This document shows positions 18,035 through 51,086 of a stretch of DNA of 64,000 bases, piece by piece. Numbering within the stretch: position 1 is the stretch's first letter; each line of letters opens with the position of its first letter. A program made the position numbers and the translations under genes. The notes beneath the pieces are model-generated. The model was not told the origin of the DNA. It saw nothing but the letters and a program-made list of their open reading frames with translations, and did not search any database. Origin of the DNA: a virus; the IMG/VR virus record IMGVR_UViG_3300042451_001197, positions 32,001 through 96,000 of that record; one strand, written 5' to 3'.

Positions 18035-18049
18035 TTGTATCTTTGTTAT

Positions 18050-18454
18050 ATGAAAAGTTCTACTAAACTAAACACCTTAACTAATAAACAATTAACGAAG
18101 GTACTGAAAAGTTCCCTTCAGTATTGTATGGTTACATTTGGGGTTAATAAAAGAAAGAGAACTACTCTTGGTATTAAGATATATGGTAACATGCTTGGGG
18201 ATAAGAGATGTGCTGGTTGTTATGACCCCATTGATAATAGTATATCATTATTTCTTAATGCTAATAAAACCGTTGGGGAGTTACTAAGAACATTTGTTCA
18301 CGAGTATACACATTATCTTCAACCTTGTAGAACTAAGTATATGGAACTGCTTAATACTCACGGGTATGATAATCATCCATTTGAGATTGAGGCATATTCT
18401 GTTGAGAAGAAGTATGGGAGAAAGTTATTAAACGTTATTAAAAAAGAAGTGTAA
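18050..18454 (+). CDS. Zincin-like metallopeptidase, paralogue 1 (start corrected)
   Basis: FVHEYTHYLQ...YDNHPFEIEA. Confidence 0.7.
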   Translation: MKSSTKLNTLTNKQLTKVLKSSLQYCMVTFGVNKRKRTTLGIKIYGNMLGDKRCAGCYDPIDNSISLFLNANKTVGELLRTFVHEYTHYLQPCRTKYMELLNTHGYDNHPFEIEAYSVEKKYGRKLLNVIKKEV

Positions 18455-19043: not shown

Positions 19044-19449
19044 GAAAAAGAAAATAATATTTGATTGGCTTGATGATCAGTTTAGGGACTGCACCATTCA
19101 TTCACATTGTGATTATCCCCAATCTTACTTTTATAAAAAAGGTATTACTATAATCGGGGAACAGGATGTTAAGAACAATTACTTTTGGGTTCATAATGAT
19201 GAGGTGTGGGGATTTATTGAAAAGGTATTCACTATGGGGAAAGAAGAAGTAAGGGATGTATTAATGGAATGGTTTGAGCATATTGGAAACAAGAAACTTG
19301 GAGTTGGTCACATCCCCCTTTATGTTGTAGAGTTAGATAAATTATTAAACCCACCTATAACTGAATTAAAATATTATACTCCTCTCATTATTACAGATAA
19401 CGATTTAAGACCAGTATTAAAAGACGGAAAACTAAAACAAATAAGATGA
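19036..19449 (+). CDS. Hypothetical protein related to the 21-27 kb family
   Basis: KKIIFDWLD...VFTM....V..VL.EWFE. Confidence 0.6.
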   Translation: MDKKKKIIFDWLDDQFRDCTIHSHCDYPQSYFYKKGITIIGEQDVKNNYFWVHNDEVWGFIEKVFTMGKEEVRDVLMEWFEHIGNKKLGVGHIPLYVVELDKLLNPPITELKYYTPLIITDNDLRPVLKDGKLKQIR

Positions 19450-19868
19450 AACTAAAAAAGAAAATGAAATTAAAAGATATCCCCAAAGAAGATATGTGGT
19501 ATATTGTGGACCTTCTCTCAGTTTTCTGTGGGAAAGAGATGGGGATTAATAAAAGAAGAAAAAAAGAATTGGTTTATGTCTTGGGGAAAAAAGAAGTTGA
19601 TGGTGTTCACGGGTATTACGACTCGGATGATAATGAGATTCACTTTATGAGAAAAAAAATTAAGACCTTGGATATGTTTATTAAAACTTTCATTCACGAA
19701 TATACTCATTACTTACAACCTTGTAAGACCCACTACTCAAGATTGTTAGATCTTCACGGATATGAGAATCACCCCTATGAAGTTGAAGCTTTTTCTAATG
19801 AGAATGTTTACTTTAAAAAAGCGTATAGAGAAATTAAGTATTGTTTTTCTTTAAGAGAAAATCCATAA
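19446..19868 (+). CDS. Zincin-like metallopeptidase, paralogue 2
   Basis: FIHEYTHYLQ...YENHPYEVEA. Confidence 0.7.
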   Translation: MKLKKKMKLKDIPKEDMWYIVDLLSVFCGKEMGINKRRKKELVYVLGKKEVDGVHGYYDSDDNEIHFMRKKIKTLDMFIKTFIHEYTHYLQPCKTHYSRLLDLHGYENHPYEVEAFSNENVYFKKAYREIKYCFSLRENP

Positions 19869-22698: not shown

Positions 22699-23010
22699 AT
22701 GAAATTCGAGATAAGTGATAATAAGTTGGAGAAGGTTGTCTTTAAGTATTTGGAAGGTAAGAACTTTATCATTAGGGAAACCCCTTATGATTATTACTTT
22801 TTGGAAAACGAGGGCGATAAATATGTTCAAATTAGAATCAGAAAAAATGATATGGTTTGTTTTATTTATTACAAATTAAGTGAAGAAATTGAATCGTTTT
22901 TTTCAATTGAATTTCCTATGGTTAAAGATGTTTTAAAAAAATATGTTGAGAATATCCTAAATATTAAAGTATCTAAAACATTTTTATCTCCAACTATTTT
23001 AATTGCGTAG
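22699..23010 (+). CDS. MKFEI family paralogue ending in repeat-spacer unit
   Basis: Family motifs; ends YVENILNIKVSKT plus 9 unique aa. Confidence 0.75.
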   Translation: MKFEISDNKLEKVVFKYLEGKNFIIRETPYDYYFLENEGDKYVQIRIRKNDMVCFIYYKLSEEIESFFSIEFPMVKDVLKKYVENILNIKVSKTFLSPTILIA

Positions 23011-23028
23011 TTGAGAATACCTTAAATT
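22945..23028 (+). repeat. CRISPR-like mini-unit A (35-nt repeat, 30-nt spacer, half repeat)
   Basis: GTTGAGAATATCCTAAATATTAAAGTATCTAAAAC / 22980-23009 / GTTGAGAATACCTTAAATT. Confidence 0.7.
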
Positions 23029-23046
23029 AATCTATTTATGTAATAA

Positions 23047-24504: not shown

Positions 24505-24553
24505 TTAAAATTTTGTATTTGTTTATTTGATAATTTATCATTATCTTTGTATT

Positions 24554-25276
24554 ATGATTTCAGATAAAATTAAAAAAATTATATTTGATAAATTATATAA
24601 GGATTTATCTAATGTTGAGATTATTCCCCACGAAAATAGTATTTGGTTTATAGATAGGGAAGAGAAGTATTGGTATTTTGAATTTACCAAGTCAGGTGAA
24701 TTGTGGTGGAGATATTCTTTCTTTGTTGATTTTTTTCAGTTTTTTTCTATGGAATATAAGGAGTTTGTACCGATTATTAGTGAATGGGTGGAAGAGGTTT
24801 TGAATTCTAAGGTGTTTGAAACAGGGAAATTATTTTACGACTATGCACCTGAAGTGGAAGAGATATTAAATTCTAAGGTATCTACAACTGAAAGTTTATC
24901 CTTTAAGTCAGTAGGGTTGGTGGAAGAGGTATTAAATTTTAAGGTGTCTACAACTACTTCTAAATTTTCAAAAAAAAGCATTATGGTGGAAGAGGTATTA
25001 AATTCTAAGGTGTCTACAACTACGAAAAGACATTCCCCACATATCAGACAGGTGGAAAAAGTGTTAAATTCTAAGGTGTCTACAACAATTCAGGCACAAT
25101 TTCTTCTTCAGTCTCGGGTGGAAGAGATATTAAATTCTAAGGTATCGACAACTTGGTTAAATGGTTGTAATAGGGATGAAAAGGTTGGGGAAGTATTGGA
25201 TTGTAAGGTGACTGAAACCAAATTAGGTCCTACAAGTAAATTTTATGAAATAAATAAGGTTTTATCTCAAACATAA
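24554..25276 (+). CDS. Family-domain protein whose C-terminal two thirds is a translated repeat-spacer array (start corrected)
   Basis: TATCTTTG-TATT-ATG; 7 x VEEVLNSKVSTT-like block separated by unrelated 10-aa segments. Confidence 0.75.
   Translation: MISDKIKKIIFDKLYKDLSNVEIIPHENSIWFIDREEKYWYFEFTKSGELWWRYSFFVDFFQFFSMEYKEFVPIISEWVEEVLNSKVFETGKLFYDYAPEVEEILNSKVSTTESLSFKSVGLVEEVLNFKVSTTTSKFSKKSIMVEEVLNSKVSTTTKRHSPHIRQVEKVLNSKVSTTIQAQFLLQSRVEEILNSKVSTTWLNGCNRDEKVGEVLDCKVTETKLGPTSKFYEINKVLSQT
24787..25218 (+). CRISPR. CRISPR-like array inside a CDS: 7 repeats, 6 unique spacers, 66-nt period; no cas genes in window
   Basis: Repeat (G)GTGGAAGAGGTATTAAATTCTAAGGTGTCTACAAC starting 24788, 24854, 24920, 24986, 25052, 25118, 25184 (degenerate); remnant at 25250. 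Confidence 0.55.
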
Positions 25277-26052: not shown

Positions 26053-26379
26053 ATGAATTTTGAGATTAACGAAAACAAATTACAAAATATTGTCTTCAAG
26101 TATGTGGACAATAAAAACTATGTCATTAAAGAAACTGATAATGATTATTACTTTATAGAAAACGAAGAAGATGAGTATGCTCAGATTAGAATTAGAAAAA
26201 GTGATAAAGTTTGTGTTATTTATCACAAATTAACTGAAGAAATTGAATCGTTTTTTTCAATTGAATACCCTATGGTTGAAGATGTTTTAACGAGATATGT
26301 TGAGAATACCATAAATATTGAGGTGTCTAAAACCCTATTAGGTATAAATCTTAAAGCAGAAGCGTTGAGAATACCTTAA
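26053..26379 (+). CDS. MKFEI family paralogue ending in repeat-spacer unit
   Basis: Ends YVENTINIEVSKT plus 10 unique aa plus LRIP. Confidence 0.75.
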   Translation: MNFEINENKLQNIVFKYVDNKNYVIKETDNDYYFIENEEDEYAQIRIRKSDKVCVIYHKLTEEIESFFSIEYPMVEDVLTRYVENTINIEVSKTLLGINLKAEALRIP

Positions 26380-26382
26380 ATT
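26299..26382 (+). repeat. CRISPR-like mini-unit D (35-nt repeat, 30-nt spacer, half repeat)
   Basis: GTTGAGAATACCATAAATATTGAGGTGTCTAAAAC / 26334-26363 / GTTGAGAATACCTTAAATT. Confidence 0.7.
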
Positions 26383-26397
26383 AAACTATTTATCATT

Positions 26398-29622: not shown

Positions 29623-29805
29623 TTAGTAACTCCAATATTCGTTTTGTATTTTTCTTACTTCTTCAATTCCTTCCATTATTTTTTTAAATGCCGGTTCCAA
29701 CTCTGAGTTATCACCATAAAAGATATGACCATATTCTTCTATATGATGATAGAAGTCAATTATCTCTTCCATTTCCACTTTTCTAATGTCTTTAATGTTC
29801 GGCAT
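29623..29805 (-). CDS. Hypothetical protein
   Basis: ORF track. Confidence 0.5.
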   Translation of the reverse strand: MPNIKDIRKVEMEEIIDFYHHIEEYGHIFYGDNSELEPAFKKIMEGIEEVRKIQNEYWSY

Positions 29806-30550
29806 CCTGATTTACTTCTATGTTATCAATATTTTGTTCCAAGTTGTTTAATATCTTAAATTCATTTGTTTCTTCAGTATAAACAATATAACTATTATTT
29901 TCAATCCAATCACCACAATTTAGATAATGTATTCCGTTAATAGTTTTATTTTCAGGTTTATGAATATGTCCACAAATTACCCCAATACAATTTCTTTTTT
30001 TAGCCTCATCAGCTAATTGATTTTCATAATTAGTAATAAACTTAACCGCGTTCTTTACTTTGTCTTTTGCCCACTTACTTAATGATTTTCTATATCCAAT
30101 AGATTTCAAAAACATATCAATTGTAATTGCTAATTCATAACCAAATGAACCTAACTTACCTAACCACTTTAATTTAACAATACCATCGTATAAATCTCCG
30201 TGTGTTATGTAATAGTTGTTCCATACATACTCATCACAAATTTTAATGTTATTTCCAAATTTTATTGGGGTGTATTCTCTTAAAAAGTCATCGTGATTTC
30301 CTGTAATGTAAACTACCTCACAACCTTTCTTAGACATTGATAATATTCTCTTAATAACTGAAGTGTAGTTATCAGTCCAAAAATGTCTTTTCTTTAATAA
30401 CCAACCATCAATAAAGTCACCGACAATGAATAGTTTTTTAGGTTTATATTTCTTCAGTATTGTTAGTAGTTCTTTTGATTTAGAACCTTTACTACCTAAA
30501 TGTACATCTGAAATGAAAAGTGCATCTATTTTAATCTTTTTTGGTTTCAT
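29792..30550 (-). CDS. LpxH/YbbF-like metallophosphoesterase
   Basis: FISDVHLG, VGDFIDGW, ITGNHDD, THGDLYD, ICGHIH, YLNCGDWIE. Confidence 0.88.
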   Translation of the reverse strand: MKPKKIKIDALFISDVHLGSKGSKSKELLTILKKYKPKKLFIVGDFIDGWLLKKRHFWTDNYTSVIKRILSMSKKGCEVVYITGNHDDFLREYTPIKFGNNIKICDEYVWNNYYITHGDLYDGIVKLKWLGKLGSFGYELAITIDMFLKSIGYRKSLSKWAKDKVKNAVKFITNYENQLADEAKKRNCIGVICGHIHKPENKTINGIHYLNCGDWIENNSYIVYTEETNEFKILNNLEQNIDNIEVNQDAEH

Positions 30551-49585: not shown

Positions 49586-49800
49586 AAAAAGAATTAGAGT
49601 TTAACAAGGTTATTAAGGAGTTAGGTGAAAATTTAACTAAAATCGAATATAATAATGGTGATGTTTCTGATATTGGAAATGAGGTAGGTTATATTTTAGG
49701 TAATTTACTTAAAAATATGTCAGAAAAAGAAATAAATGAGTTCATTTTCGGTTTTAGACACGGAGTAAGTTTAACTAATGGAACTCATTCTTTTAGTTGA
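49582..49800 (+). CDS. Hypothetical protein
   Basis: ORF track. Confidence 0.5.
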   Translation: MKKELEFNKVIKELGENLTKIEYNNGDVSDIGNEVGYILGNLLKNMSEKEINEFIFGFRHGVSLTNGTHSFS

Positions 49801-51064
49801 GTAATTTCTTACTTTGTTTTTGTCTGTGAAAATTAATCACAAATCTGTGAACTTCTTCTTGAACTTTACCCAATATAGTAAATGTAGTATTACTTAATAT
49901 TGAATGAGTTTTACCATCAATAGTATGGACTATAGATGATTTATGATTACTATCTTTAGATACGGATATCAAGTCAACTTTGTTTAGAATACCTAATCGT
50001 TCAAATACTTTTATTGCAACATTCAATTGTCCTTTACCTCCATCAATCAAAACAAGATTAGGTAGTTGTTGTTTTTCTTTTATTAGTTTACCAAATCTTC
50101 TGTTAAGAATCTCATCAAAAGACGCATAGTCATCAATACCCTGAAAAGATTTTATATTATATTTTCTATAATCATTCTTGTTCGGTATTTCATTTATAAA
50201 CCTAACTGATGCGGCAACATTAGAATCTCCCTGATTATGTGAATTATCAAAACCTTCAATGATTAATGGTACGTTGTTAAGGTTAAGTAACTTTTTAAGT
50301 TCAAAAGCATTTTTATTTGATTTTCTGATTCTAATTGTTTCAACTTTACTTTCAAGTTCTTTAATCATTTCTACCTTTGAGTGTAGGTTTCCCGCAATTT
50401 CAAACTCCAATTTGTCTGAATGATACTTAACAAGTTTTTTTAATTTGTTCTCAACATATTTCAAATCCAATTCAAATATTTTTTTAACCAATTGGATTTT
50501 TGATTGATATATTATCTCGGTAATTTTGTTTACGCAAGGACCTGAACATCTCATCATTTGATACTCTAAACAAATTTTGAATTTACCTTTATCAATGTTT
50601 TCTTGGGTAAGGTCATACGAACAACTTCTCAGGTCTATAATGTCGTGTATTAGGTTATAAACCTCTCTACAAAGAAGTCCACTTGTGAAATCTAAACTAT
50701 CTCTATTATCTGTATTGTTTCTAACAATTTCAAGTTTTGGAAATCTTTCATCTGTTATACAGATTGACCACTTTCTTGTTTTATCATCTTTACCTTTTAT
50801 GTTAAACTTTGGTTTGTAAACTTTAATAAGTTCTTCTTCCATTAGAATCGCTTCCTGTTCTGAAGAAGTTATAACAAAATCAACATCTTTAATTTGTTCA
50901 ACAAGGTATTTTGTTTTTTGATTATCGTGATTTTTTTGGAAATAGGATGTAACTCTTTTTGGTAAGAATTTTGACATACCAACATAGATTATTTGGTCTT
51001 TGTCATCTTTGAATAAATAACACCCAGGAAATTGTGGTATATTTTTTAGTTTCTCTGTTATCAC
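49793..51064 (-). CDS. uvrC: UvrC-like excinuclease, shortened, no C-terminal HhH (GTG start)
   Basis: GIY-YIG PGCYLFKD...IIYVG, Cys cluster, UVR LEFEIA, RNase H-like IEGFDNSH, DDYAS, LIDGGKGQL, EEVHRF. Confidence 0.88.
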   Translation of the reverse strand: MITEKLKNIPQFPGCYLFKDDKDQIIYVGMSKFLPKRVTSYFQKNHDNQKTKYLVEQIKDVDFVITSSEQEAILMEEELIKVYKPKFNIKGKDDKTRKWSICITDERFPKLEIVRNNTDNRDSLDFTSGLLCREVYNLIHDIIDLRSCSYDLTQENIDKGKFKICLEYQMMRCSGPCVNKITEIIYQSKIQLVKKIFELDLKYVENKLKKLVKYHSDKLEFEIAGNLHSKVEMIKELESKVETIRIRKSNKNAFELKKLLNLNNVPLIIEGFDNSHNQGDSNVAASVRFINEIPNKNDYRKYNIKSFQGIDDYASFDEILNRRFGKLIKEKQQLPNLVLIDGGKGQLNVAIKVFERLGILNKVDLISVSKDSNHKSSIVHTIDGKTHSILSNTTFTILGKVQEEVHRFVINFHRQKQSKKLLN

Positions 51065-51086
51065 ATTACAAAGATACAAAAAAAAA

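Follow-up and report, generated by a model that had tools for sequence, protein, structure and literature searches.

In a lake jumbo phage, a small gene was found whose 3′ end is a CRISPR-type array of repeats and inserts, translated as part of the protein. This gene lies in the window, by which we mean the whole stretch of 64,000 nucleotides of viral DNA that was analysed, and the observation of a translated repeat-insert array, made earlier in a preliminary description of this DNA, was confirmed. We consider it likely that the array grew at the gene end by capture of host DNA, with Cas1-Cas2 of the host acting in trans, and that the captured pieces are translated and selected. In the literature, no publication on translated arrays of this kind was found.

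Structure of the array gene

The open reading frame 24554-25276 codes for a folded domain of 78 residues, followed by seven units of 66 bp and a decayed repeat (Table 1). A second in-frame start, TTG at 24527, is located upstream of the ATG. In agreement with the preliminary description, seven repeat copies (at 24788, 24854, 24920, 24986, 25052, 25118 and 25184) follow each other at an exact period of 66 nt with a degenerate remnant at 25250, the array is free of stops in one frame (a single open frame of 240 aa), and decay like that of a trailer end is visible in repeat 7 and the remnant. The lengths given there, 35-36 nt for the repeat and 30-31 nt for the spacer, held, and the boundaries are now fixed at 36 bp (from the G before GTGGAAG to ACAAC) and 30 bp; the count of six inserts has to be corrected to seven. 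These inserts, which had been called mutually unrelated, have a pairwise identity of 0.27, equal to the random level, and a GC content of 0.34. The repeats of the window are 0.81 identical to each other and 0.71 identical at third codon positions, repeat 1 differing from the consensus by 5 mismatches and from repeat 2 by 8 nt. In the shuffled 106.8-kb record, the number of repeat copies within 11 mismatches was 0. With seven 36-bp direct repeats at a fixed 66-bp period, the array has the form by which CRISPR arrays are generically recognised.

Table 1. Features of the array gene in the window
Feature	Position	Strand	Remarks	Basis
Array gene	24554..25276	+	N-terminal domain and translated array, 240 aa from ATG 24554	ORF list, translation
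N-terminal alpha-beta4-alpha-alpha domain	24554..24786	+	'leader' side of the array	AlphaFold model, paralog alignment
Repeat 1 (36 bp)	24787..24822	+	encodes end of helix 3 (VEEVLNSKVFET); diverged from other copies	
Insert 1 (30 bp)	24823..24852	+	cassette GKLFYDYAPE; also in relatives P0002 and L013	
Repeat 2	24853..24888	+		
Insert 2	24889..24918	+	cassette ESLSFKSVGL	
Repeat 3	24919..24954	+		
Insert 3	24955..24984	+	cassette TSKFSKKSIM	
Repeat 4	24985..25020	+	identical to consensus	
Insert 4	25021..25050	+	cassette TKRHSPHIRQ	
Repeat 5	25051..25086	+		
Insert 5	25087..25116	+	cassette IQAQFLLQSR; also in relative P0003; weak candidate protospacer in L223	
Repeat 6	25117..25152	+		
Insert 6	25153..25182	+	cassette WLNGCNRDEK; common to P0002, P0003 and P0004; old, distal end	
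Repeat 7	25183..25218	+	decayed, 10/35 mismatches	
Insert 7	25219..25248	+	cassette KLGPTSKFYE; common to P0002, P0003 and P0004	
Terminal degenerate partial repeat and stop	25249..25276	+	INKVLSQT*	tail kept in P0002-P0004

Protein family and fold

Homologues of the array protein number 1207 at E <= 0.001, and all those inspected, which range from 151 to 403 aa, consist of an 80-residue domain and n units of 12 constant and 10 variable residues. DNA was at hand for 7 loci from the first scan and for 111 further ones; 160 arrays in 105 loci were parsed, 118 of these arrays being distinct, and many loci carry two to four array genes. The gene product had no match in Pfam and PHROGs, the protein had none in GenBank phages (tblastn), and the ESM Atlas contained no usable match.

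An AlphaFold model of the domain, based on a 72-sequence alignment, reached a pLDDT of 95.7 and a pTM of 0.86 and consists of a helix, four strands and two helices. The end of helix 3 is supplied by the first repeat in this model, which bears out the earlier view of that repeat as the natural end of the domain. In the comparison with solved folds, Foldseek gave no PDB match and VIA-align a best Z of 4.7, and BFVD returned uncharacterised phage homologues only. The array-encoded tail was modelled with a pLDDT of about 25 and confident structure was absent; a solenoid or repeat fold of the tail is therefore unsupported.

Growth of the arrays

The spacing from repeat to repeat is exactly 66 bp in 758 of about 800 cases (160 arrays in 105 loci, duplicates unmerged), and the other spacings, where seen, are also multiples of 3. 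The 118 distinct arrays contain 377 unique inserts in 321 unrelated clusters. Pairs of inserts differ either by 0-7 mismatches or by at least 10, with an empty class in between, so that units must have been replaced whole, without gradual mutation. By the same bimodal histogram, gradual hypermutation of the linkers is ruled out. A diversity-generating retroelement was also rejected, since RVT_1 is absent in five phage records, inserts are swapped whole and adenines are not targeted.

The aligned orthologues revealed a polarised turnover of 66-bp units across related arrays. The order of shared inserts is kept in 140 array pairs and broken in 1. A given insert occurs on average in 2.0 arrays at the domain-proximal position and in 4.9 at the distal end, and the mismatches of the repeats climb from 2.5 to 6.9 with distance from the first repeat. 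Related arrays have their 3′ inserts in common and differ in the domain-proximal ones, where the repeats are least decayed. This is also seen for the window, which shares two distal cassettes and the tail with its relatives P0002, P0003 and P0004 and differs from them in the upstream cassettes. The 140:1 order and the decay gradient thus correspond to the polarised addition and the degenerate terminal repeat of CRISPR arrays.

A search of 185,579 species genomes with a degenerate form of the repeat pattern returned none that contain it. Neither the repeat tail nor insert 4 had an exact match in scans of viral contigs.

Carrier phages and their predicted hosts

The IMG/VR record that contains the window comprises 106,819 b (CheckV 36% complete, GC 0.29). 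Related records, which are 223-326 kb long, contain a major capsid gene of the T4 type and lack an NCLDV capsid; the carriers of the array are T4-like jumbo phages. A full-length DnaK (HSP70, E 1e-260; G000:C1:26387-28171) is encoded on the minus strand of the record upstream of the window, and one complete relative has a full DnaK as well. The nearest cellular homologues of this DnaK come from freshwater Flavobacteriales bins (75-78% identity), with a Crocinitomicaceae bin at the top. We took this similarity as a clue to the host and chose the bacterial family for the insert searches accordingly; the predicted hosts, as far as sequence comparison can tell, are Crocinitomicaceae (Flavobacteriales). 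In jumbo size, host group and Flavobacteriales-like DnaK, the array-bearing phages agree with the "moraphages", which are aquatic jumbo phages that reach 307 kb, infect Bacteroidota and have taken DnaK/DnaJ from Flavobacteriales (PMC12619734).

Origin of the inserts

The GC content of the inserts is 0.41-0.43, compared with 0.31 in the phage loci and 0.41-0.47 in the fetched target loci, and it is flat along the arrays, i.e. without amelioration with age. In base content A is about equal to T and C to G, and the TA dinucleotide is depleted (rho 0.63, z -11.7 against stop-free shuffles), which is a signature of natural DNA. Together with the protospacers reported below, this signature rules out an untemplated random synthesis of the inserts. 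In the phage genome itself and in related phage DNA (about 0.8 Mb), the inserts match only other arrays, and the phage was therefore rejected as their source. A blastn search of GenBank phages with the inserts gave chance-level matches only. The head-to-tail joining gene of the Pelagibacter phage HTVC119P matches positions 24884-24913 of the window (28/30, E 0.01); this match, which spans 6 nt of repeat 2 and 24 nt of insert 2, was judged to be due to chance.

For the bacterial search set, we used the genomes of that family to which the best DnaK relative belongs (the family of G005). Lake Mendota and the Rimov reservoir are among the sources of the bins. Here the inserts of three arrays from sister phages found their counterparts. 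For the L016 array, matches occurred in 22 of 151 family genomes, including 31/31 and 33/35; at least seven different inserts of the L109 array (including 30/30) and at least eight of the L101 array (including 32/32) match family genomes as well. These matches have 93-100% identity over 28-32 nt, the one of 31/31 lying in a FabH gene, and the same approximately 10 genomes recur. In a phylum-wide control of 150 genomes, the L016 query gave weak matches only and none of them coincided with inserts.

Twelve independent protospacers in host-family genomes were examined in detail. In 10 of the 12 cases the homology begins 1 nt ahead of the provisional spacer start, the target agreeing there with the wobble position of the last Thr codon, and it stops at nt 29, the next G being part of the repeat. 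From these limits, the real unit consists of 36 bp of repeat (GGTGGAAGAGG...ACAAC) and 30 bp of insert. The flanks of the protospacers bear no relation to the repeat. Ordinary genes are targeted, among them those for FabH, a type-IX-secreted Kazal protein and a C92 peptidase; five protospacers are antisense and seven sense, four of the latter in frame and three out of frame. A PAM was not clearly visible around the 12 protospacers. Judged by these alignments, the inserts of the sister phages are demonstrably pieces of ordinary Crocinitomicaceae chromosomal genes. Several host-family genomes (L213-L215) contain a short tandem repeat region to which the insert at L016:560-589 (unit 524-589; CATCTCCTAATCCCTTCATCTCC...) corresponds; repetitive host DNA is thus captured too.

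For the seven inserts of the window itself, all 236 host-family genomes gave noise-level matches only, the best being that of insert 5 (24/30 from the exact boundary, in L223). The search for the source of the spacers, proposed in the preliminary description, has thus led to host chromosomes for the sister phages and to no source within the 236 family genomes for the window; protospacers, as expected of a CRISPR array, were found for the family and not for the window's own inserts. Either the host of this phage is outside the genomes searched, or the window's copy has long been inactive. The difference of 8 nt between repeats 1 and 2 suggests that the copy may be old and inactive. Since the cassettes would reveal bacteria in which a phage replicated, they might be used for the host assignment of uncultured jumbo phages.

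These results bear on whether DNA capture is needed at all. An ordinary protein tandem repeat or multi-core peptide precursor, the linkers of which diverged by mutation, selection and unequal crossing-over, could be imagined for a translated array with constant 12-mers that could be recognition sites. Small HExxH proteins of the zincin/SprT-like type, below the Pfam cut-offs, are encoded near the arrays in 16 of 31 loci, and on this account a cleavage of the array protein into peptides is possible. Precursors of ribosomal peptides with several cores, such as cyanobactin PatE, have a leader domain and, after it, short and extremely variable cores, each set between flanks with a conserved nucleotide sequence. 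The array gene resembles them in its leader domain followed by variable cores between conserved flanks and differs from them in that its cassettes are captured host DNA of a fixed 10 residues with a polar age gradient; among its neighbours, no maturation enzymes were identified beyond the sub-threshold zincin/SprT-like proteins. Such an origin is already contradicted, and we hold it to be very improbable: inserts match host genes across exactly 30 bp, insert pairs of intermediate divergence are missing, the composition of the inserts is foreign to the phage, and their residue make-up is closer to that of translated arbitrary DNA (r = 0.82) than to that of the phage proteome (r = 0.68). "False CRISPRs" have in common with the phage array the repeat-spacer look inside a coding gene and the absence of cas genes; however, they are defined by missing spacer diversity (PMC5294841), whereas the phage arrays hold 321 unrelated insert clusters and have protospacers. 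By the insert identity of 0.27, the bimodal histogram and the host protospacers, a false CRISPR or coding tandem repeat was rejected.

Selection on the translated inserts

In the reading frame of the gene, the 377 unique inserts contain 1 stop in 3770 codons; in the other frames the number of stops is 134-262. Among the 92 substitution events in shared inserts, 48 are synonymous compared with 24.5 expected under the same mutation spectrum (p = 2e-7), and the dN/dS of shared cassettes is roughly 0.25-0.35. The scarcity of stops and the synonymous excess indicate that both the translation of the whole array and the sequence of retained cassettes are under selection, as had been suspected from the stop-free spacers of the window. 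Shared cassettes evolve, by the measure of these substitutions, under purifying selection. The first repeat is conserved at synonymous sites as well: in 103 genes its codon entropy is 0.59 compared with 1.02 bits (p = 0.01). Its codons GTG GAA GAG, AAT, AAG and ACA are nearly invariant, with GTG, GAG and AAG being rare in the phage, and the wobble base of its last ACN codon is fully variable.

Another way to account for the arrays would be that adaptation complexes of the host integrate off-target at phage sequences that resemble a leader-repeat junction, and that the 66-bp geometry spares the gene, the inserts being neutral scars. The frame would then be kept by geometry alone, and both the arbitrary nature of the host fragments, which occur in both orientations and in more than one reading frame, and the tail with its pLDDT of about 25 would fit. 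We regard this as unlikely in view of the near absence of stops, the low dN/dS of shared cassettes and the synonymous conservation of a first repeat with phage-rare codons. Multiple arrays per genome are, in addition, found across lineages whose domains are about 55-70% identical to that of the window. For the array of captured, translated and selected host DNA that we prefer, three points count on the negative side: purifying selection on peptides from arbitrary host DNA lacks an explanation so far, the window's inserts are without a convincing protospacer, and Rfam, consulted at permissive thresholds in answer to the earlier proposal to compare the repeat with CRISPR repeat families, contained no direct-repeat match.

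Integration machinery and proposed mechanism

Six-frame searches of the window's record and of four related phage records, two of them CheckV-complete, detected neither Cas1 nor a reverse transcriptase; with regard to Cas1, the absence of cas genes reported before thus extends to the whole record. A cas1-cas2 pair in the same genome, as is usual for CRISPR arrays, was not found, and Cas1-Cas2-Cas9 occurred only in a putative host genome. This host-clade genome (G063) carries a complete type II-C locus (L246:8399-14122) with a Cas9 of 1184 aa, Cas1, Cas2 and 11 repeats, the array having 47-nt repeats and 30-nt spacers. In both arrays the leader-repeat junction is TTG followed by GGTG, the leader-distal end is CACAAC and the orientation to the growing end is the same. 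Written in the direction of growth, the junction is ...CATTTG then GGTGTTTCG...TTCACAAC in G063 and ...TCTTCTTG then GGTGGAAGAGG...TCCACAAC in the phage. The II-C array is unlike the phage array in its longer repeat with an unrelated middle, in being non-coding and in adjoining cas9-cas1-cas2. Its spacers had no real match in the phage DNA.

A precedent for the filling of an array by a foreign integrase comes from Flavobacterium columnare, where the II-C Cas1 fills a 36-bp type VI-B array without cas1 in trans, and where the II-C and VI-B repeats have only the leader-distal GTTGT motif in common (PMC8092290). In other species the II-C repeats are longer by about 11 bp, and among the spacers acquired by the VI-B array many come from the host (PMC8092290). 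With the VI-B arrays of Flavobacteriia, the phage array shares the 36-bp repeat, the 30-bp spacers, the leader-distal GTTGT/ACAAC, the lack of an own cas1, the polarised growth and the many host-derived spacers (PMC8092290). It is unlike them in being located in a phage and inside a gene and in being kept translatable; its leader-proximal end is GGTG instead of the GTTG of VI-B, and a host array with the phage repeat was not found. The resemblance to array geometries of Bacteroidota, pointed out previously, is therefore borne out by a II-C array of the host clade with 30-bp spacers and the same repeat termini and by the VI-B arrays that are filled in trans.

We propose that 30-bp DNA fragments would be inserted repeatedly where the domain-coding part meets the first 36-bp repeat, with a duplication of the repeat each time. 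As 36 + 30 = 66 bp corresponds to 22 codons, the protein gains 12 constant and 10 new residues per event and the frame stays intact. Inserts carrying a stop would be lost, and the remaining ones would be translated and then held by purifying selection. Fragments of the host chromosome would serve as donor; in infections by T4-type phages, fragments of host DNA are plentiful. Since the phages are without Cas1, we infer that the integrase would be the type II-C Cas1-Cas2 of the host acting in trans, as for the VI-B arrays of F. columnare (PMC8092290). Such a CRISPR-type uptake of host DNA, in which the host's Cas1-Cas2 probably acts in trans, would agree with the earlier suggestion of a gene end which acts as a substrate for spacer acquisition and builds 10-aa extensions; polar turnover, the strict 36 + 30 bp, the protospacers of the sister arrays and the open frame all support it. 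The preliminary description had also named what would speak against it, namely linkers homologous to each other or conserved by descent without turnover of units, spacers lacking protospacers and a repeat unlike all CRISPR repeat families. None of these applies to the family, and a protospacer was not found for the window's own seven inserts.

Three findings count against the step that involves the host Cas1. Cas1 was present in only 1 of 10 host-clade genomes, which are metagenome bins with completeness not given; the repeats of 36 bp in the phage and 47 bp in the host II-C array have only their ends in common; and a PAM was not seen, which weighs against the II-C step because Cas9-assisted acquisition might leave one. 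For this reason, an unrecognised integrase or recombination system encoded by the phage is a serious rival as the builder of the same array. The occurrence of two to four arrays in many loci and the 1207 family members would suggest a dedicated, portable mechanism. On the other hand, no Cas1 or reverse transcriptase was detected in the two complete genomes, the conserved neighbours of the arrays are small proteins of unknown function and zincin-like proteins with no recombinases among them, and in insert length and repeat termini the phage array agrees with the host II-C array. Taken together, we judge a phage-encoded enzyme to be rather unlikely.

As to the benefit for the phage, our leading guess is that the array is a sink or decoy for the adaptation machinery of the host, with products that are forced to stay translatable. 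It is possible, but only a tentative thought, that the phage deliberately offers gene ends to CRISPR adaptation of the host and in this way writes host DNA into its proteins as selectable cassettes of 10 residues. If this were true, a nucleic-acid immune enzyme would build a record or library at the protein level, which could be an adaptation sink or provide peptides acting on host proteins. If the capture of host DNA as such is confirmed, spacer integration of the CRISPR type also takes place in genes of viruses and draws its donor DNA from the host chromosome, and its product can be a translated, selected protein and not only a guide RNA. This would be a new outcome for integration of the Cas1-Cas2 type and possibly a new counter-defence of phages. 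The frame-preserving 66-bp unit might also be seen as a natural design for the recording of DNA into protein.

Comparison with RNA-based counter-defence

A dual function, in which the transcript would also give rise to crRNA-like RNAs that load or jam Cas13b or Cas9 of the host, had been put forward as guide or decoy RNAs in the preliminary description. The 36 + 30 geometry with its ACAAC end, as in VI-B arrays (PMC8092290), would be suitable, phage mimics of repeats that block Cas complexes are known (PMC10651486), and a weak GUGGA/UCCAC stem is possible in the repeat. The lengths and the ACAAC end agree with type VI-B, whereas the opposite end is GGTG. Arrays with canonical VI-B termini were absent in the 236 host-family genomes, and the repeat occurred in none of the prokaryote genomes searched, the 185,579 species genomes included. 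The fold of the repeat is no better than that of shuffles (z -0.4 to -1.3), an antisense bias is lacking with 5 antisense and 7 sense protospacers, and the synonymous excess is not expected from a role as RNA. The proposal of guide or decoy RNAs was thus not upheld, and we consider a dual function quite improbable.

Phages are known to carry orphan arrays, mini-arrays and solitary repeat units, called RNA anti-CRISPRs, which like the phage array are viral CRISPR repeats without cas genes (PMC10651486). Their repeats are thought to exploit or block Cas proteins of the host (PMC10651486). They are non-coding and close mimics of the host repeat (PMC10651486), in contrast to the array described here, which is long and turning over, takes its inserts from the host chromosome and has a repeat that codes for a protein helix.

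Paralogs and further genes of the window

The array gene is surrounded by nine small paralogs that share its domain at 19-26% identity (alignment A3). Two of these paralog genes, 22699-23010 and 26053-26379, end in a repeat variant of their own (GTTGAGAATA..AAAAC). At both ends (22945-23030 and 26299-26385 of the window), an unrelated segment and then half a repeat (GTTGAGAATACCTTAAAT) follow with a period of 65 nt. Due to this period the second repeat copy is out of frame, and one gene ends with TAG and the other with LRIP*. The same insertion process may have produced these two ends, each with a single unit.

At 18035-18454 and 19446-19868 the phage encodes two small proteins, paralogs of each other, that contain a HEYTH (HExxH) motif; their matches to metallopeptidase families (zincin, SprT-like and DUF6782) are below the threshold. 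A calcineurin-like metallophosphoesterase of 252 aa is located at 29792-30550 on the minus strand, and a related family was found near arrays in 9 loci. The phage also encodes a UvrC-like nuclease of 428 aa with a GIY-YIG and a UvrC RNase H endonuclease domain (49793-51079, minus strand).
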